Shown here: positions 5,717 through 31,498 of the stretch, one piece after another
How positions within the stretch are numbered: the stretch's first letter is position 1
How the letters are laid out: each line of letters starts with the position of its first letter
The notes under the pieces: generated by a model
The model's input: only the letters and a program-made list of their open reading frames with translations
What the model was told of the DNA's origin: nothing
Database searches by the model: none
Assembly: GCA_000002445.1 (NCBI GenBank)
Contig: CP000066.1
Span: 1,376,001 to 1,440,000 of the forward strand
Origin: Trypanosoma brucei
Taxonomy: Eukaryota
Length of the DNA: 64,000 nucleotides
Reading direction: 5' to 3'
Made by a program: the position numbers and the translations under genes

Positions 5717-5739
5717 ATATATATATATATATATATATA
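5717..5739. repeat. (AT)n microsatellite
   Basis: About 11 AT dinucleotide units in the intergenic spacer. Confidence 0.9.
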
Positions 5740-7311: not shown

Positions 7312-9561
7312 ATGACCTCACTCGTCCTAAATCACTATTCGCAGGAGGAAGTCAGCCGACTTTTCAATCTTTCGTCTCCACGAGACCTATTTCACCAGCG
7401 CACGCCGGCGCTGGCCGACGGAGACGTGAAACAGAAGGTGGAGGAGATACGCTCTTACGTGCATAGCACTATGGAACTGTATGAGAGGGTTTTTGAATGC
7501 CTCTCGTCGGAGGAAGCGTTTTTCGTTCAACCGATCCACAAGCTTCGCCACCCCTTAATTTTTTACTACGGCCACACTGCCTGCTTCTACATAAATAAGT
7601 TGTGCGCCGCTGGACTCTCCATGCGAATTCGCCCACACCTTGAGGAGGCGTTTGCAGTTGGTGTGGATGAGATGAGCTGGGATGATCTTAACGAAGAGCA
7701 CTATAACTGGCCAACAGTGGAGGAAGTTGTAGAGTACCGCCGTGCTGTCCGTAAGCACGTGGATGGCATGATGACAAGTGGCAAATTTGAACTGACCCTT
7801 CCCTTGACATTTGCTGGAAGCACAGAGAACGCTGACAGTTCATTTTGGTGGTTAATGTTGATGTGTGCTGAGCACGAGCGCATCCACGTCGAAACCGCCT
7901 CCGTTCACGTGCGAGAACTTCCCATGCGTTATGTGAGGCCGTCTATGGATCAGTTCTGGAAGCCGTGTGGGGAGGCAGGTTGCGAAGCCCCGGCAAACGA
8001 GCTGGTGGATGTAGCCGGGGGACGGGTAGCCGTCGGACGTGCGCCTAACTCTGAGCTATACGGTTGGGATTGCGACTACTCTGACGGAAATTATGTGCTT
8101 AATGTTGCACCGTTCAAGGCGAGTAAGTACTTAGTGTCTAACGCGGAGTTCTTTACCTTTGTTGTTGCAGGTGGTTACGCTACGCAACGCTACTGGGATG
8201 AGGAAGGGTGGAACTGGGTCCAGTGGAGGAAACCTGAGTGTCCCTGGTTCTGGGTTCGCGATGAGAACCGACCCAAGGGTTATGCGCTTCGACTTCAAAC
8301 GACGCTTATTGACTTGCCGTGGAGCTGGCCATGTGAGATTAACAATCTTGAGGCTCGGGCGTTTTGTAACTTTAAAAGTGAGCAAACTGGGAAGAAAATT
8401 CGTATGCCTACAGAAGCTGAATGGCTGATTCTTTGGGACCGGTACGTCGGCAAAGATCAAATGTTGTGGGATGTAGCGCCGGGGAATGTTAACATGGAAC
8501 ACTTCCAAAGTAGTTGCCCTGTCGATAAGTTTGCTCACGGTCCATTTTTCGATATAGTTGGAAACGTGTGGCAGCACTGTGAAACACCAGTATACCCGTA
8601 TCCTGGTTACCAGGTGCATCCATTCTACGATGATTTTTCTATGCCTACCTTTGATGGTCGCCATGCGTGTATGAAAGGCGGGGCATGGGTTAGTACGGGG
8701 AACGAGGCTACACGCGATGCTCGCTTCGCCTTTCGCCGCCATTTCTTCCAATACATCGGACTTCGATACGTGGAAGGTGAACCGGTGCAAGAGGGGTTTC
8801 TCAACTTGAATTCGTTGGGGCTTGATCCCATGGTGGATGCCATTACGGATGCCAACTACCGTCCTTCGTTTAATGACATCCCTAATGGTTTCGTACAGAT
8901 AGCAGAATTTGTTATGAACCAGTTCAGGTGTTGTGCTAGGACAGGGCCGAAGCGTGCCCTTGATTTTGCGTGTGGGGCTGGACGGATAGCATTTGAGCTG
9001 ACGTCAATGTTTGATCAAGTGGTTGGGTCGGATTTTTCTGCCCGATTGCTCATTCCCGCCTACGCTATCAGTGAGCGCGGAAGCTACACATATAGTATTG
9101 TGAACTCTTCTACGTCGAGACGTGTAGAACAAACCTTCAAGTCGCTGGGGTACCCGTGGGATGCAACCCGAGGGCGCGCTGTTTTTTTTCAAGCAGATCC
9201 TACGAACCTACACTCCCACATGAAAGATTTCTCGTTGATCTTGTGCTGGAACACGCTGGATAGGAGCTACAACCCCACCGCTGTTCCGTCGCATATGGTT
9301 GACAGGCTTGTGGTGGGTGGTTTGATTGTCTTCGGGCTTGATGGAGTGACTGATGAAGTCAACGAAGGAAAGAGGGAGCAGGGGGGTGAGGAAACACCCA
9401 AGCAGGTCGTCTTCTCAGAAAACGAGATCTATCATCTGTTGGGCGGAGAAAACGTGGTGGACCGCGTCGGAGACCCAACACAACTGACGGTTGCGTTTCC
9501 TGCGTCAGACTCTACAGCAACTTTCAGAAAAGTTCGGCTGTCCGTCTACCGAAAGAAATAA
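7312..9561 (+). CDS. OvoA: 5-histidylcysteine sulfoxide synthase OvoA (ovothiol biosynthesis): a DinB-like plus FGE-sulfatase domain fused to a C-terminal SAM methyltransferase
   Basis: Iron-binding H-x3-H-x-E motif (EHERIHVE). EgtB/OvoA-type FGE-sulfatase-like region (FKASKYLVSNAEFFTFVVAGGYATQRYWDEEGWNW, GPFFDIVGNVWQHCETP). C-terminal methyltransferase motif I (LDFACGAGRIAFEL). This three-part architecture is the one described for OvoA of Erwinia and Trypanosoma. Confidence 0.85.
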   Translation: MTSLVLNHYSQEEVSRLFNLSSPRDLFHQRTPALADGDVKQKVEEIRSYVHSTMELYERVFECLSSEEAFFVQPIHKLRHPLIFYYGHTACFYINKLCAAGLSMRIRPHLEEAFAVGVDEMSWDDLNEEHYNWPTVEEVVEYRRAVRKHVDGMMTSGKFELTLPLTFAGSTENADSSFWWLMLMCAEHERIHVETASVHVRELPMRYVRPSMDQFWKPCGEAGCEAPANELVDVAGGRVAVGRAPNSELYGWDCDYSDGNYVLNVAPFKASKYLVSNAEFFTFVVAGGYATQRYWDEEGWNWVQWRKPECPWFWVRDENRPKGYALRLQTTLIDLPWSWPCEINNLEARAFCNFKSEQTGKKIRMPTEAEWLILWDRYVGKDQMLWDVAPGNVNMEHFQSSCPVDKFAHGPFFDIVGNVWQHCETPVYPYPGYQVHPFYDDFSMPTFDGRHACMKGGAWVSTGNEATRDARFAFRRHFFQYIGLRYVEGEPVQEGFLNLNSLGLDPMVDAITDANYRPSFNDIPNGFVQIAEFVMNQFRCCARTGPKRALDFACGAGRIAFELTSMFDQVVGSDFSARLLIPAYAISERGSYTYSIVNSSTSRRVEQTFKSLGYPWDATRGRAVFFQADPTNLHSHMKDFSLILCWNTLDRSYNPTAVPSHMVDRLVVGGLIVFGLDGVTDEVNEGKREQGGEETPKQVVFSENEIYHLLGGENVVDRVGDPTQLTVAFPASDSTATFRKVRLSVYRKK

Positions 9562-11002
9562 GTGATGGACAAAGCTCTACCTCCTCTCCAGTTTGTATGA
9601 AGTCACAGTCGCGCCTCGAGTCTTCTTCCAATGAGGCTTTAACATGATGGTAGGGCGTTTAGTTTTTCGGTTATTTTCCATAATTTTCTTTCTTATTTGG
9701 TTTTTCGGCTTAACAAAAGGCCGGTTTCCGGCCCTCCCCACCGCGGGCGCTTTGCTACGGGCCACCGTCTATGCACTGGCCCGCCTCATAGCATTTGAAT
9801 ACGTACATATACTTGTATTCGAATAGTTTGTGCAGCTCTAATGAAAAAAGTATGTTTTCAGGGTTTATGAGATATACCATTTGTGTTTAATTTTTTGTAC
9901 CCTCGTATTCACATTGTTTACTCATTTATCAAAAGAGGAAGTGGTAGCGTGGAGGCAGGTAAACGCCGCCGGCTACGAGCGAACGGGTGTCGGGAAACGA
10001 CGATGTGTTAGCGATTTCGTTTGGGATACCATAATTGAGGAGAGAGATCGTTGGCATTCGGTGATGGAAGAGGGATGCATTCTGCTAGTTTTGTCAGTGA
10101 AGTAAAATGGACTGTGCCCACTTTTTTTTTCTTCGTATTGCTAAGCGGCGAGAAATGTGCATGATATCCCCGCCTCAGTGCCCTGACTACCCCTCCCACT
10201 CATGGCGGTTGTTGAGTTGTTTTGATGGTCCCTATGGGTCGTTTCTTTGTGTTCTCAGGTGCTTCCGCTTGAGCGTGTGTCCGTTATTCAGAACATATTG
10301 AGGGCCAACTTATGTAAGGCACTTGTGTAACTATGGGATTGGAGGTGTGGCTTTGTTGTGGTAGGGTCGAAGTTCAGCGTATTGTGGCAGATCAACCCCA
10401 TTTCCTGTTTGCTCGCGTCAGGAGGACACTGTTTCTTTTTTTTTTTTAAAGGCACAAGGGAATACGCCTGGGTTAGTGCGCTGCATTTGACCTTATATCC
10501 GGTTCCTATTGATGAGGCTGGCTTCGTTTTGGCGGCGGTATATTCAACCAAGCGCGATCCTTGAATCGACTATGCCCTCCACTACGCTATGTCGGCTTAC
10601 TGACTTTAGGATCCACCTCGTTGACCTCTGTCCTTTTACTTGGGGTGTTTAAACTGGGTTCGGGCTCTGTGGGTGCTCGTCAGCGACCGTCGTTTACATC
10701 GGACATCTTTAATTATTTTTATTCCATAATCCGTTTGTGTTTTTGTACCCCTCACTCCAATATACGAGGGTGTAAGGGCCTGAGAGTTATGTGCATGTGG
10801 GAGGAACTCTTCGTATTAATGCAGTTTCTTGTTTTTTGTTTGCATACGCCAGCCGAGTACCACGCACCTTCTCGTTTCCCATATGTGTGTGTATCTCCTT
10901 CCGTAGGTCTGCGCGCTGTTTGTCTTCTTTTACGGTCATTTGTCATTATTTCGTTAATTTCTTTTGCCCCTTGTAGATACGCGGTGCGGCCAGTAAGTTG
11001 GG

Positions 11003-13071: not shown

Positions 13072-16000
13072 ATGTCTATGCACCGTGACTTACTTCGAAT
13101 AAGGCGGCAGACGTCGAACCTTGTCTCGTCACCCTCGCCTCCTTCCTCACGTGCCAGCCCTCGTGCAAGGGTGAGTTCGGCTAGAGGGGAACAACGACAA
13201 GGTGCTAGTGAAGCCGTGCATGTAGCAGTTCGTGTGCGGCCTTTGTCTGTCAATGAGGCGGGACAAGATGTCATCGTTTCGATGGATCCGTCAGCGAAGA
13301 AGATATTCGTGAGGAACCGAGGCGAGGAGCAACAAGAGTTTCCTTTTGAGTTGCCCGTATGGTCTTGCGGTGGAAATGCGCTAAACGGCTCGCCGCCGGT
13401 AAGTCAGGCAGCACTGTACAAAATGGTTGGGCAACCCCTTTTGGACCACGCATTTGAGGGCTTTAACAGCACACTTATGGTATACGGTAGCACAGGCAGC
13501 GGAAAAACTTACACAATGATGGGTGACATGGATGGCGGCTTTCTGGGTGAGGACGAGGATGTGCTCAACGATGGTGAGGAGGGCATTGTCCCACGCCTAT
13601 GCCGTGAGATGTTTCAGAAGATCAGAGATCGCTCGGTCAGCTTGTCTGACGGGGGAACGCTGACGTGGGATGTGCATGCCTCCTATGTGGAGGTTTATTG
13701 TGAGAAGATTAGCGATTTACTGAATAACGGTGCCCCTGTCACTATTCGTGAGGTGATCACGGATAACGAAGCGCACTTTGCGCTCAATGGTGCGCAGCGG
13801 GTTAACGTCCGTAATTCAGCGGAAATACTGCATCTCCTAAAAATTGGTAACAGACACAGGAAAACAGCCTCTACGGCCATGAATGAGCGCAGTAGTCGTA
13901 GTCATGCTATATTTGTTGTGGAGCTCACCGAGATGCTTGTAGTGAGGGGACCCGATGGTGAGTGTGTCGGTGCCCCAGGCAAGTTCCTTACCGTTCGCCT
14001 CGTTGATTTGGCGGGTAGTGAACGCGTTGGGGAAGCGGGCATGTCGGGACAGCTATTCAAGGAGGGTGTTGATATTAACTGCAGCCTCTTCACCCTGGGT
14101 ATGGTAATTGAGGCTCTTTCGGATCCTAGTCGACGCCATATGAGGCCACCATACCGTGACAGTACGTTGACGAAGATTCTAAAGGACGCATTTGGTGGAA
14201 ACAGCAAAACCACGATGATTTGTACCATTGCCCCCACGGAGGCCCAACGTGTGCACACGGTTCAAACACTTCAGTACGGGCTTAAGGCGCGACGAATTGT
14301 GAACAAGCCATGTGCGAAGAGAGGACCGTCAGCTAAAGAGCTTCGTAAGGCCAGTGAGGAGATGCTTAGTTTACGCCAGAAGCGCAGGGAAAGGCAACCA
14401 CAAGGCACTGGCTTGGAGGAATCGTATGCTGATCTAAGGCGTGCTGGCGACGGAGGCTTACATAATGGGGGTGCTTTACGTCATTCTGAGAGCTCGTCGG
14501 AAGGCAAGGAGACTTCTCTTGGCGGCTCCAATTTCGCTACAGATGAGGAGAGGGACCGTTACAGGAGGAAGATGGAAGAGCTGGAAGAAGAAATTGAGCG
14601 TGCGAGGGCGAGATACAGAGAGCAGGGGCGGGAGCTGCAAAACATAAGGAGAGAGAGTGCGGCTGAGGCTGAGGTGCGTTTAAGGGCGTTAGAAGCCCAA
14701 TTCAATGAGAAGGAAAATCATTTGAAGCGGAAAGGTCACGAAATTCAAAGGAAGCACCGTGATGCGGAGAGCCGATTGAAAGAGTTTAAAAATTTTTCGG
14801 AGGAGCGCATTTCTGACCTCCTTCGTGCACAGGGGGAGCTGAAAGATAAGTTACACGAGAAGGAACTTGCAGTCGGGCAGCGTGAGCGGGAGCTGCAGGA
14901 GGCCCAGAGTCGTGCCGAGGAGGAGGTTTCCCGTTTGCATCAGCGCATGATGCAGCAGGAACGAAAATGGCTTGAGCGCCATAAGGCTTTGGAAGCTGAA
15001 ATTTGCGCACAGGAAGACAAAATGAGGGACCGATTGCGTGATGCTATGGAGAGAATGCGTAATGTGGAAGAAGTTGCAGCACGTCGCGAGAGTGAGCTTC
15101 ACCGCAAGTGGTTAGATGCCCAGCAAGCGACCCGAGAGCTTCACCACAAGTTAGCTGAGAGCGAGGCAGAAAAGGCGCGACAAATATCTCAGGATCGCCG
15201 GGAAACAACCAAACGCGAGTCTGAACTTGCCCATAAATTGGAAGAAACTGAGCGCGGCCGAAAGGCCCTCGAACGTGAGGCGGTATCGCTAAAGACTGAA
15301 TTGGATGTGTTGAAGGAAGACTACGAGATGCTCGCTAAAAACAGCAGGGAGGGTTGTGATGCGGAGGCGCGGCTTCTCCCCCTTGAGGAGGAACTAAAGA
15401 GGCGAGAGGAGCGGCTGCAGCAACGCGAGGAACAGGCCCAGGCATCACTCGATGAAGTTCTAAAGAAGCAAGAGGAACTGGACCGCTTACACCTCGCAGT
15501 CATTGCCAAAGCAGATGCTATTGAGAAGGATGCGGTTGCCGCACTTCGGGAAAGGGAGAGTCGCCTTCAGAAGCGTGAAGATGAGCTTAAGAGCTTGGAG
15601 CATGAGTTGGAGGCACGCTCCGCGGTTTTGGATGTGGAGGCCAAGTATAAATCAATGGAGTACGATACGAAGGAGAGTGGGGCAGAGGCTTTAGCTTCCC
15701 GCGAACGCCGCGCCACAGAACTGCTTCAAGATGAACTTCAGGAAGCATTGCAACGTGTTCATCTCGACATGAAACAGAGGGAAGAGAAGTTTGATCGAAT
15801 GGAAGATGATATCAAGCGATGTCGTGAGCAGTTGGAGAATCTCTACAACGAGCGGGATGAGATGCTTAGGCGTGCATCCACATCCTCCGCTGGACGCAGC
15901 TGCGTGTTTGACTCGCCGCTTCCCGTTCCTCCACGGGGTTGCCGAAGATGCAGGTCGGGTACATCGTGGCCGTCCAACTGTAGCACGATGGGGACCGGGG

Positions 16001-17856
16001 AGGAAAATGATGCGTCTCTCAGTGGGCGGCAGTTCTCTCCTAACCAAAGCAGCGCGTCGCAGCAAGAACCGCGCTGCTCAGAGAACGGGGTTGAGGGGGG
16101 GAGGTCGTCTGAACTGCGTCCGATAAGTGCTCTTGCGGGGGAGTCGGTTTGCTTATGGCTCAAGAATATGCTGATCACTATGGAGGAAAGGAGCCGCGGC
16201 TTACTTGAGGATTTGTGCTATCATGAATACAGTGTCCTCGAGCGGATGACGTCCATCGGCTCTCTTTTTTCGTTTGGCGAAAATGCTCCCAACACGAGGA
16301 GCCCTGAGGTGGCCGCCAGGGTGGTTGACCGTACTTCGGTGTCTGCATGTAGTGACCATTTGCGCGGTGGTTTTCGACTTGGATCAATATGTGGTGTCGT
16401 GCCCCATGATGCTCCTTGCGTGCCTAGCCTCATGCATACTGAAGCGGACTGCGGTTTAAGAGATGCAGCATCGGAACATGAACAACTTGCCCAGCGTATA
16501 GTCGCGTTTGAACGGCTGCAGCATCAACGTGAGGTCGAGTTTCAGCAGAAGGATGAGCAAATCAGGGAATACCTAGTTGAAGTGGAGGCGATGGATCGTG
16601 AAAGGATGGCGATGTATCGCTTAAAGGAGGAGGAACACGAGGCTGCGGCTGCACAGTTGCAGATGGCAAAACGTGAGTTTGACCACCGTGTTAATTGCAT
16701 GCAGCAAACCCTTTTTTGCCGCGGCGCGCAGCAACACGCTGAGTCCATAGTCTTGCAGGAGGCCGCTGAACGTGAGAACATTTTTCGGCTATTCAACATT
16801 CAACTTCACAAGATTTTCGCCCATGAGAGAAACATGGCGCACCATACGAACTGTGTGGACTTGTTGCGCCAGAGAGAGGAGGTGATCACGCTTGAGGAGG
16901 CACAACTCCAGAAACGTATAAGTCAGCTAAAGGACGAGGAGGATGAGTGGAAAAGACGTCGTTCCACCGAGGAGACGCAGATACTCACGTACCTATTGGA
17001 GCTACAAAACGAAGATATGCTGCGCAAGCAAGCCATTGGGGAGAAGGGAAGCAGAGAGGACACCGCGAAATACTGCGAAGACGCCGAACTCGGGGTTGCG
17101 GGTTTGTGTAATGTGATGCATCGAGTAAGGGATCACACGCAGAAGTGTGAACTTGCGGTACAAAAGATGGAGAGTGAACTGGAACAGCAGGCAGATGCGG
17201 AGAAGGTCTTGGAGGAACGTGAAGCTGCTGTTGAACGGCGCCGTCGTGAACTTTCCACCAGCATGGAGTCTCGGGAGCGTTCCCTTTTGGACAGGGAAAT
17301 GGAACTGGAGGAGTTGACTCGTCGGCTTAAAGGTGACATACAAAAACGTGAACTTGCGATACAAAAGATGGAGAGTGAACTGGAACAGCAGGCAGATGCG
17401 GAGAAGGTCTTGGAGGAACGTGAAGCTGCTGTTGAACGGCGCCGTCGTGAACTTTCCACCAGCATGGAGTCTCGGGAGCGTTCCCTCTTGGAACAGGAAG
17501 TGGACCTACGGAAACTGTCCACTAAAGCAGGGGATAATTGTCGTAAACGTCCGGGTTCTCGTGTGGCACATAATCAGGAAGGTTCCTACTACGTTGACAT
17601 CAAGAAACTTCTGGAGGTCTGTGGATTTCAACTGCCGGGTGGAAAAGTTGAATTCCCGGACGGCGCTGACACACCGATTGAACTGACCGATAACCTTATC
17701 GACGTTATCGAATCACTACGACGCCAGCTAAAGGTATGGATTCAAAAGTATCGTGTGCTGAAGTCAGATGAGAAACTGGAGTGTGAACGCTGTTTGTGGC
17801 AGAATAACCGTGGTGCCACTGTGTGCCGATGCTGCGGCAATGCTCAACTTGTGTAA
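13072..17856 (+). CDS. Kinesin-like protein (1594 aa): N-terminal motor domain, very long coiled-coil stalk, C-terminal RanBP2-type zinc finger
   Basis: The motor begins VAVRVRPLS. P-loop GSTGSGKTYTM, switch I NERSSRSHAIF and switch II LVDLAGSERV are all present. Charged heptad-like sequence runs from about residue 430 to 1500. C-terminus CERCLWQNNRGATVCRCCG fits C-x2-C-x3-N-x6-C-x2-C (RanBP2 ZnF). Confidence 0.9.
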   Translation: MSMHRDLLRIRRQTSNLVSSPSPPSSRASPRARVSSARGEQRQGASEAVHVAVRVRPLSVNEAGQDVIVSMDPSAKKIFVRNRGEEQQEFPFELPVWSCGGNALNGSPPVSQAALYKMVGQPLLDHAFEGFNSTLMVYGSTGSGKTYTMMGDMDGGFLGEDEDVLNDGEEGIVPRLCREMFQKIRDRSVSLSDGGTLTWDVHASYVEVYCEKISDLLNNGAPVTIREVITDNEAHFALNGAQRVNVRNSAEILHLLKIGNRHRKTASTAMNERSSRSHAIFVVELTEMLVVRGPDGECVGAPGKFLTVRLVDLAGSERVGEAGMSGQLFKEGVDINCSLFTLGMVIEALSDPSRRHMRPPYRDSTLTKILKDAFGGNSKTTMICTIAPTEAQRVHTVQTLQYGLKARRIVNKPCAKRGPSAKELRKASEEMLSLRQKRRERQPQGTGLEESYADLRRAGDGGLHNGGALRHSESSSEGKETSLGGSNFATDEERDRYRRKMEELEEEIERARARYREQGRELQNIRRESAAEAEVRLRALEAQFNEKENHLKRKGHEIQRKHRDAESRLKEFKNFSEERISDLLRAQGELKDKLHEKELAVGQRERELQEAQSRAEEEVSRLHQRMMQQERKWLERHKALEAEICAQEDKMRDRLRDAMERMRNVEEVAARRESELHRKWLDAQQATRELHHKLAESEAEKARQISQDRRETTKRESELAHKLEETERGRKALEREAVSLKTELDVLKEDYEMLAKNSREGCDAEARLLPLEEELKRREERLQQREEQAQASLDEVLKKQEELDRLHLAVIAKADAIEKDAVAALRERESRLQKREDELKSLEHELEARSAVLDVEAKYKSMEYDTKESGAEALASRERRATELLQDELQEALQRVHLDMKQREEKFDRMEDDIKRCREQLENLYNERDEMLRRASTSSAGRSCVFDSPLPVPPRGCRRCRSGTSWPSNCSTMGTGEENDASLSGRQFSPNQSSASQQEPRCSENGVEGGRSSELRPISALAGESVCLWLKNMLITMEERSRGLLEDLCYHEYSVLERMTSIGSLFSFGENAPNTRSPEVAARVVDRTSVSACSDHLRGGFRLGSICGVVPHDAPCVPSLMHTEADCGLRDAASEHEQLAQRIVAFERLQHQREVEFQQKDEQIREYLVEVEAMDRERMAMYRLKEEEHEAAAAQLQMAKREFDHRVNCMQQTLFCRGAQQHAESIVLQEAAERENIFRLFNIQLHKIFAHERNMAHHTNCVDLLRQREEVITLEEAQLQKRISQLKDEEDEWKRRRSTEETQILTYLLELQNEDMLRKQAIGEKGSREDTAKYCEDAELGVAGLCNVMHRVRDHTQKCELAVQKMESELEQQADAEKVLEEREAAVERRRRELSTSMESRERSLLDREMELEELTRRLKGDIQKRELAIQKMESELEQQADAEKVLEEREAAVERRRRELSTSMESRERSLLEQEVDLRKLSTKAGDNCRKRPGSRVAHNQEGSYYVDIKKLLEVCGFQLPGGKVEFPDGADTPIELTDNLIDVIESLRRQLKVWIQKYRVLKSDEKLECERCLWQNNRGATVCRCCGNAQLV
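17147..17488 (+). repeat. Near-identical tandem duplication inside the kinesin stalk: two copies of about 141 nt with a 201-nt period
   Basis: 17147-17286 and 17348-17487 are almost base-for-base identical, with one visible difference (gcggta versus gcgata). They encode CELAVQKMESELEQQADAEKVLEEREAAVERRRRELSTSMESRERSLL twice, 67 aa apart. Confidence 0.9.
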
Positions 17857-18211: not shown

Positions 18212-18234
18212 ATATATATATATATATATATATA
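18212..18234. repeat. (AT)n microsatellite
   Basis: Dinucleotide run in the spacer after the kinesin gene. Confidence 0.9.
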
Positions 18235-19236
18235 CATTTTTTTGAGCACCTCAGCACGTGTGAGGAACAAAAGTGAATGTAACGGTGATGATGATAAATG
18301 CAAGATGTGAGCTCAAATGACACTAACGCGATTTTTTTTGTTGGAGCGATGCGTCGTTGCCCTCGTTTCGTTTCAGTGTTCGTTTGCTCGCGATTGGTTT
18401 ACCCTTTTAACGTGGATGCGCGTCAGTTTTTAGATTCATGAATGACCGATGTCTTGTGGTGACTTGTGCACTCATCTTACAAACGGTTGCAGTGCGTAGA
18501 TTTCGCCGCGCGTTCTTCTTCCTTTGGGGGCAGAAGAAAAAAAATTAACGTCAACTTGCACGCACGAACTTAGCTAACACCGCAGGTATAATAAAGAGTT
18601 ATGGGAAGTGAAGTGGTGAGAGTGGGTTGATGGCGCCACTTTGGGATGATTGTCCTCCCTTTCCCTCCTTTTCTTTCCTTCTTTATCGTTTTCTCTATTC
18701 CTATCACCGTTTTTAGTACCTCTATTTGTCGTATTTGTCAACTCCTTAGTGCCATTTGTTTACTTCACTTTCCCAATCCATTCTTCTACCTTACCTTGCC
18801 TTTCTTCTATTATTACAGCGAGGACGTTTATTAGGTGGTAAATGATATGTGACGGCAGGGAACCGCTGTATTTTGGGGTTGGAAGATTATTGTTCATGAT
18901 GTGTTTGTTTGTGTACACAACAAACGTAGAGAGTGACAGCCAGAGATGGAGACCGCTGTTTTAATGACCCACCAGCGAACCCTCTTATATTGGGAGTAGA
19001 CATTTTAACATTCCCCCAGCTCCAAGCGTTCTGTTGTTTTCCTTGAGTATCTTTTTTTTACTCTTTTCTGACCTGGCGAAAGGGGGGGGGGGTAGTGTTC
19101 CTCTGCCTTATGAACTTTTGCGTGCGAAAAGGGGGAACAAATGAGCTATGTAGATGTGTCGGAACATTTCTTTTTGTTCAGATGTGTGTATACTACCCCT
19201 GTCCATGACTGATCTCGCTTGCACTTCCGTTTCAAT

Positions 19237-31458: not shown

Positions 31459-31498
<40 letters not shown>
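31459..31498. repeat. (AT)20 microsatellite
   Basis: 40-nt perfect AT dinucleotide run. Confidence 0.95.

Follow-up and report, generated by a model that had tools for sequence, protein, structure and literature searches.

The kinesin gene and the repeat in its stalk

We describe a short tandem repeat inside a kinesin gene of Trypanosoma brucei, located in a 64,000-nucleotide (nt) stretch of contig CP000066.1 (GenBank assembly GCA_000002445.1, positions 1,376,001 to 1,440,000 of the forward strand), hereafter the window. An exact-sequence look-up matched the gene product to identical entries from T. brucei brucei TREU927 (XP_844087.1, Q582P0) and T. equiperdum OVI (SCU68248.1). The protein begins with a motor domain, continues into a long stalk that is helical for the most part, and ends in a small C-terminal tail. 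Its translation shows the motifs of the P-loop (GSTGSGKT), switch I (SSRSH) and switch II (DLAGSE), and Pfam returned Kinesin and Microtub_bd only. With its N-terminal motor, the product of this gene belongs to the kinesin superfamily.

As seen in a register-by-register comparison at an offset of 201 nt, the stalk contains two 145-nt copies (17147-17291 and 17348-17492), here termed cores, whose period is exactly 201 nt and which differ at two positions. The first mismatch (17158, G/A) exchanges Val for Ile, the second (17286, T/C) is silent, and between them runs an exact match of 127 nt (17159-17285). The codon preceding the core is TGT (Cys, 17146-17148) in copy 1 and CGT (Arg, 17347-17349) in copy 2, a Cys start being found in copy 1 only. 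Weaker similarity continues past the core up to 17306/17507 (15 of 20 positions) and covers a few bases upstream, and an internal repeat search of the window returned the pair as 193 nt with 89% identity. The initial annotation had described a near-perfect duplicated block with a 201-nt period in the kinesin stalk, and this block is real. Its count of essentially one difference needs revising to two over 17147-17287, or three with the first codon. It had also placed two unrelated 60-nt linkers around the copies. There is a single linker, 56 nt long and lying within the unit, and the supposed second linker is unique downstream flank, which aligns to the ancestral sequence after the segment in other species.

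The unit of repetition spans all 201 nt, core and linker together, because the T. equiperdum IVM-t1 assembly repeats the linker 100% identically together with the core. The array of the window therefore consists of one full unit and a 145-nt partial unit, that is, 1.7 copies. Since 201 is 67 x 3, all units lie in the same frame, in the window as well as in T. b. gambiense DAL972 and IVM-t1. A 60-nt probe from the core had exactly two matches in the window and none in any of 100 shuffles, and a chance origin of the repeat was rejected on these grounds. Tandem Repeats Finder (TRF) did not report the 201-nt repeat in the window, where fewer than two copies fall below its detection threshold. A diagonal scan of the kinesin protein (30-residue windows, at least 60% identity) found no other high-identity internal repeat. 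The coordinates of the gene and its features are collected in Table 1.

Table 1. Coordinates in the window of the kinesin gene, its repeat array and associated protein features
Feature	Position	Strand	Basis and remarks
Host kinesin gene	13072..17856	+	Single 1594-codon open reading frame, 1594-aa product (open reading frame list, translation)
Kinesin motor domain, aa 54-409	13231..14298	+	Pfam PF00225, E 4.4e-83, 279 bits versus a cut-off of 29.3
Predicted continuous alpha-helix, aa 1328-1492	17053..17547	+	AlphaFold2, fragment residues 34-198
Segment directly upstream of the array (AKYCEDAELGVAGLCNVMHRVRDHTQK)	17065..17145	+	MAFFT alignment of C-terminal regions
Full repeat unit, 201 nt / 67 aa	17147..17347	+	Core 17147-17291 and linker 17292-17347 (DREMELEELTRRLKGDIQK)
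Terminal partial unit, 145-nt core	17348..17492	+	Similarity fades to 17507
C-terminal CxxC-x10-CxxC motif (CERCLWQNNRGATVCRCC), aa 1571-1588	17782..17835	+	Alignment; outside the repeat

The gene is probably Tb927.3.4960, as judged from its chromosome position and the list of chromosome-3 kinesins, whose IDs were taken from PMC3008729. Literature searches by accession (Q582P0, XP_844087, AAZ10528 and GCA_003543875) found nothing, so the assignment stays inferential. The upstream neighbour has no domains, which is compatible with Tb927.3.4950, described as of "unknown function." If the kinesin is Tb927.3.4960, it is a BioID hit of TbPLK scored "CYTO" (PMC4551316). All open reading frames of at least 250 aa in the window are on the plus strand, as expected of a trypanosomatid polycistronic unit, and the minus-strand frames that cross the repeat (17133-17522 and 17002-17364) were accordingly taken as shadows of the coding strand and set aside.

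Upstream of the repeat, the middle of the stalk (aa ~1010-1200, window ~16099-16670) is rich in Cys, Ser and Pro and looks nonhelical in translation (SSAGRSCVFDSPLPVPPRGCRRCRSGTSWPSNCST...), and this stretch aligns poorly to other species. The stalk would therefore not be one uninterrupted 1100-residue coiled coil. A 21-nt unit present twice in the stalk (85% match; window 16587-16628, TRF score 63), and found in IVM-t1 too, is probably a trivial coiled-coil codon repeat.

Copy number and divergence among assemblies

The locus was retrieved from three further assemblies: T. b. gambiense DAL972, T. equiperdum OVI and T. equiperdum IVM-t1. A look-up through the upstream neighbour gene for more T. 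brucei assemblies returned OVI only. DAL972 and OVI carry two cores (1.7 copies), as does the TREU927 window. IVM-t1 (GCA_003543875.1) carries five cores at exact 201-nt spacing (positions 9724, 9925, 10126, 10327 and 10528 of the retrieved locus), and TRF reported this array with a period of 201, 4.8 copies, 99% matches and a score of 1892. The four full units of IVM-t1 are identical to one another and to unit 1 of DAL972. Downstream of them, the partial unit (145 nt) and the flank are those of the window. With every unit at 201-nt spacing, the array is in phase and the frame is kept across it.

The assemblies differ in how they were made. IVM-t1 is a hybrid of PacBio RS II and 300-bp MiSeq reads (PMC6395869), OVI was assembled from 2x150-bp reads with Velvet at k=33 (PMC5278650), and the 1.7-copy assemblies are all Sanger or short-read based. 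Either strains vary in copy number, or the older assemblies under-count it. The initial annotation had anticipated that copy number might change without breaking the frame, which the phased 4.8-copy array of IVM-t1 supports, and that the repeat would be a hazard for assembly, which fits the split between 1.7 copies in Sanger or short-read assemblies and 4.8 copies in the one based on long reads.

We then compared divergence between the cores with divergence between strains. TREU927 and DAL972 differ at 33 of the 4785 positions of the kinesin gene (0.69%), 15 of the changes being synonymous and 18 nonsynonymous. The cores differ from each other by 1.4% (2/145) in TREU927 and by 0.7% in DAL972, and units within a genome are 98.6 to 100% identical. 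Divergence between the paralogous copies is thus of the same order as that between alleles in the T. brucei group. Judged by these comparisons, units are more alike within a genome than orthologous sequence is between species, whose single copies reach ~50% protein identity at most, the pattern of concerted evolution. The proposal of a recent duplication or gene conversion agrees with these values and with orthologues of 40-50% protein identity in which the segment is single copy.

The sites that differ among units are also informative. Only the TREU927/OVI haplotype has Val at 17158 and the Arg codon at 17320. At the position corresponding to 17286, T is present in every full unit of all assemblies and C in every terminal unit but that of OVI, a split predicted by expansion through out-of-register exchange within an identical core. 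Over the 4785 nt of the gene, OVI departs from TREU927 at a single nucleotide, 17487 C>T, which removes from OVI one of the two differences between the copies by bringing copy 2 into line with copy 1. By our own estimate, the chance that a single random substitution would do so is (4/4785) x (1/3), or ~3e-4.

Length differences between assemblies also occur outside the kinesin gene. Perfect intergenic (AT)n microsatellites lie at window positions 18212-18234, 31459-31498 and ~5722-5739; the one at 18212 is shorter by 4 nt in IVM-t1, and the one at ~5722 seems to be displaced in OVI. The assemblies also disagree on the length of two homopolymers, a G-run at ~19082 and a T-run at 18331. Farther upstream, a plus-strand gene (7312-9561, 749 aa) unrelated to the repeat has DinB_2 and FGE-sulfatase domains (Pfam hits on the OVI locus), which we take to be the domain pair of ovothiol-synthase (OvoA)-type enzymes.

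Orthologues and predicted structure of the stalk

Orthologues were found in T. theileri, T. melophagium, T. grayi, T. conorhini, T. cruzi, T. c. marinkellei, T. vivax and many Leishmaniinae, true orthologues scoring 680 to 980 bits, and we take the kinesin to be specific to trypanosomatids. The repeat segment is single in the T. cruzi, T. grayi, T. theileri, T. melophagium, T. conorhini and Leishmania orthologues. Among the 10 orthologues put through the diagonal scan, high-identity internal repeats occurred only in T. brucei (offset of 67 aa) and T. vivax (offset of 35 aa). In a MAFFT alignment of the C-terminal regions, the terminal copy of T. brucei and its flank align to the conserved segment that is single copy elsewhere (ERE..L..ME...LQER.ADI.RRRHEAS...NERTL.DQE.DL), and the linker aligns to the sequence preceding this segment in other species. 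The T. brucei unit has one significant match in the T. grayi orthologue (aa 1245-1302, 50% identity, E 2e-10). In a conservation profile of the stalk, which is dominated by many close Leishmaniinae sequences, the repeat core is moderately conserved (0.58-0.67), and the idea that the unit is the best-conserved motif of the stalk was dropped on that account.

The T. vivax Y486 orthologue (G0TTH8), alignable to the T. brucei kinesin in motor and C-terminal tail, carries, at the equivalent position of the stalk, ~12 near-identical tandem copies of a 35-aa unit (EVSAAALEAEQRESEVREMERALEARVAEASRRHE; aa 1304-1747). Both arrays follow the same upstream segment, found in T. brucei (AKYCEDAELGVAGLCNVMHRVRDHTQK; also GLCNVMHRVRDHTQK) and in T. 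vivax (ALYTTALDSNCALTCQNTHRLTIGEQR; also LTCQNTHRLTIGEQR), and both precede the same conserved tail. In the MAFFT alignment, the T. cruzi, T. grayi, T. theileri and Leishmania orthologues lack this upstream segment. Similarity between the two units is weak (33% over 89 aa, E 0.006) and lies in the ERxAxxxRRxxExS part of the T. brucei unit. The units differ in length, 35 aa or exactly 5 heptads in T. vivax and 67 aa or 9 heptads plus 4 residues in T. brucei. The shared position and the different unit lengths indicate that the same site was amplified in both salivarian lineages, and the two expansions may represent either separate events or a deeply remodelled shared array.

Searches with the C-terminal 300 aa returned little. 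HMMER against 1.84 billion representatives gave six hits, none of them from T. congolense, T. evansi or Lister 427. A word-index homologue search gave one hit and missed the query's own cluster, the index being swamped by helical low-complexity words.

To describe the structural setting of the array, AlphaFold2 was run on aa 1295-1594 as a monomer with a 21-sequence alignment (mean predicted local distance difference test score, pLDDT, of 80). The predicted continuous helix listed in Table 1 spans both units and the KGD-containing linker, with a block-mean pLDDT of at least 90 over fragment residues 51-180. Beyond it, the model shows disorder at aa 1489-1529, then a 30-residue helix and a small beta-hairpin. 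A crude scan of hydrophobicity at a/d positions followed one heptad register through unit 1 and a shift from 0 to 4 at the RLKGDIQK junction. This shift of 4 agrees with 67 mod 7 = 4, implying one stutter per unit.

The predicted beta-hairpin carries the C-terminal CxxC-x10-CxxC motif. Columns C277, C280, W282, N284, C291, C293 and C294 are invariant among the 21 aligned orthologues. The spacing C-x2-C-x3-N-x6-C-x2-C recalls the RanBP2/NZF-type zinc finger (W-x-C-x2-4-C-x3-N-x6-C-x2-C), with the leading Trp displaced. Pfam gave no hit on this motif even at E<=10, and on the repeat unit it gave subthreshold helical noise only. If the tail is a zinc ribbon, it could be the cargo- or ubiquitin-binding end of the kinesin.

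Proposed turnover of the array and its meaning

Taken together, these observations suggest, with a probability that we put at about 0.8, that the repeat is an in-frame coding minisatellite in the distal part of the stalk, its units homogenised and its length altered through unequal recombination or gene conversion. The array would be composed of n full 201-nt units and a 145-nt partial unit, with n = 1 in TREU927, DAL972 and OVI and n = 4 in IVM-t1. The 145-167 nt of near-identity between adjoining units would provide a substrate for out-of-register homologous recombination, through unequal sister-chromatid or allelic exchange, and likewise for replication slippage and gene conversion. Whole units would be gained or lost, so that the reading frame is kept, and the same processes would hold the units almost identical, as in concerted evolution. 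On this account, the identity of the units would be a product of DNA turnover and not of protein selection. Each unit would lengthen one continuous helix by 67 residues, ~10 nm if 0.15 nm per residue is assumed, and would add one heptad stutter (67 = 9x7 + 4). Copy number would thereby alter the distance from motor to tail, and the IVM-t1 form would be ~30 nm longer between them.

Several points weigh against this explanation and are gathered here. We infer the recombination mechanism, as well as a dimeric coiled-coil stalk and any functional effect of its length. The copy-number difference comes from assemblies and not from reads, a count of 1.7 is shared by three of the four assemblies, and one of these three, OVI, is incapable of counting copies because of its 2x150-bp reads and Velvet k=33. 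The announcement of IVM-t1 lists only 7,508 PacBio reads (PMC6395869). Compared with the window, its kinesin gene has lost 1 nt at each of two sites, 13330 and 15890, and these deletions break the frame and cut the annotated model to 855 aa, so the base-level quality of IVM-t1 is imperfect. One deletion coincides with a site that differs between TREU927 and DAL972. The deletions may be consensus errors, or the gene could be decaying in a tsetse-independent lineage. The OVI change at 17487 is either a footprint of gene conversion or an artefact of short-read assembly. Moreover, a plain tandem duplication predicts 2.0 copies and not the observed 1.7, and a part of the unit of ~34 nt (17307-17340) is matched by neither flank. 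Finally, an orthologue from T. congolense, the closest outgroup, was not found in the homologue and HMMER searches, which leaves the age of the first duplication unbounded within Salivaria.

The alternatives differ in how they treat these assemblies. The array might have ~4.8 or more copies in all strains of the T. brucei group, the 1.7 copies being a collapse of the assemblies, a possibility that we hold to be real though doubtful and that parts from a minisatellite only on whether true polymorphism exists. The sole assembly built with multi-kb reads shows 4.8 copies, the 150-bp reads and k=33 of OVI cannot resolve an exact repeat of 127-145 nt, and a repeat below the TRF threshold would escape flagging in the window. 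Against a collapse, unit 1 of TREU927 has two private differences from DAL972 and IVM-t1 (17158 G and 17320 C), which points to a distinct haplotype and not obviously to a merged consensus. Chromosome 3 of TREU927 is, we assume, finished clone-based Sanger sequence, in which ~700-nt reads from the unique flanks would presumably have crossed at least three units and contradicted a 1.7-copy consensus. On balance, we lean towards TREU927 truly carrying 1.7 copies at a polymorphic locus. The opposite possibility is that IVM-t1 was over-expanded by its assembly and that a single segmental duplication, which copied ~145-167 nt to a place 201 nt downstream, has since been static. The agreement of three assemblies would fit it, as would the consensus errors and few reported PacBio reads of IVM-t1. 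We nevertheless judge it improbable. Assemblers rarely invent three perfectly phased 201-nt units, short reads collapse repeats rather than expand them, and all four units of IVM-t1 match exactly, keep the frame and have the correct flank on either side. In addition, similarity over 2.0 unit lengths would be expected after a one-off tandem event, against the 1.7 observed, and T. vivax shows that a long array is possible at the same site of the stalk.

Two further proposals assign the array a role for selection. An ancient duplication might have been held identical by selection on the protein, as two binding modules, or on nucleotide or mRNA structure, with no homogenisation by recombination. 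The duplicated segment does overlap a stretch conserved in trypanosomatids (LQER.ADI.RRRHEAS...NERTL.DQE.DL, in which the E, R, ER, E and L columns are invariant). However, protein constraint would not fix synonymous sites, yet the 48 codons show a single silent difference and 127 nt match without interruption; the IVM-t1 units are identical across all 201 nt, the poorly conserved linker included; and the duplication is absent from six other species, and T. vivax carries a different, 35-aa unit. This makes such an origin very improbable indeed. It is unlikely, though less so, that the amplified module is more than a spacer and acts as a partner- or cargo-binding segment whose copies, together with the motor-to-tail distance, were tuned by lineage-specific selection in salivarian trypanosomes. 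This idea derives from the separate amplification of the same site in T. brucei and T. vivax and from the location of the module, on the proximal edge of the conserved C-terminal region. If it were true, copy number would track life history, for example in tsetse-independent T. equiperdum versus T. brucei.

A coding minisatellite is also consistent with what is seen in known systems. Like eukaryotic coding minisatellites, or in-frame variable number tandem repeats, the array has a head-to-tail unit in the range of ten to a few hundred nt, its length is a multiple of 3 and the frame is kept, the units are near-identical, and a partial terminal unit diverges at the edge. The units appear to evolve in concert, and copy number would differ between genomes, as suggested by comparison of assemblies made with different technologies. 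Unlike typical cases, the reference copy number of 1.7 is so low that standard tandem-repeat scans miss the array. The Leishmania K39/KDDR kinesin (LINF_140017300) likewise has an N-terminal motor and a helical stalk with head-to-tail in-frame repeats (PMC8480608), and constructs with differing numbers of its 39-aa repeats were used in the same study. K39 is, however, a different gene, since proteins with this name score ~230-265 bits through the motor domain only, and its degenerate 39-aa unit occurs in dozens of copies, compared with 1.7-4.8 copies of a near-identical 67-aa unit in T. brucei. By these comparisons, the T. brucei kinesin is not a K39-type protein, having neither the orthology nor the 39-aa unit. 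Mechanistically, the repeat would be an ordinary coding minisatellite in a helical stalk, and its closest analogue is found in the arrays of other trypanosomatid kinesins, K39 among them.

Several orthologues are named "Unc104-like kinesin" in databases. Among nonkinetoplastid matches, the motor of the T. brucei kinesin is indeed most similar to KIF1, KIF13, KIF16 and Unc104. The metazoan kinesin-3 matches carry PF00498, PF16183, PF12423 and PF00169, whereas Pfam finds no FHA, PH, PX or kinesin-associated domain in the T. brucei kinesin, whose tail has instead a long helix and the CxxC...CxxC motif. The protein thus falls outside kinesin-3/Unc104, and the name reflects similarity of the motor only.

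Overall, the finding represents biologically ordinary repeat turnover in a helical stalk and opens no new question alone. It has practical consequences, since the T. brucei reference model (1594 aa) may be the shortest allele or a collapsed version, and in another Trypanozoon strain the protein would exceed it by 201 residues or more, which is relevant to tagging, knockdown, modelling and the mapping of short reads or peptides. An in-frame 201-nt unit between unique flanks can be sized by polymerase chain reaction (PCR), making the array a candidate minisatellite marker for Trypanozoon typing. Arrays of the Leishmania K39 type are strong serodiagnostic antigens (PMC8480608), and by analogy the regular 35-aa array of T. 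vivax, which has a K39-like architecture, might be antigenic.

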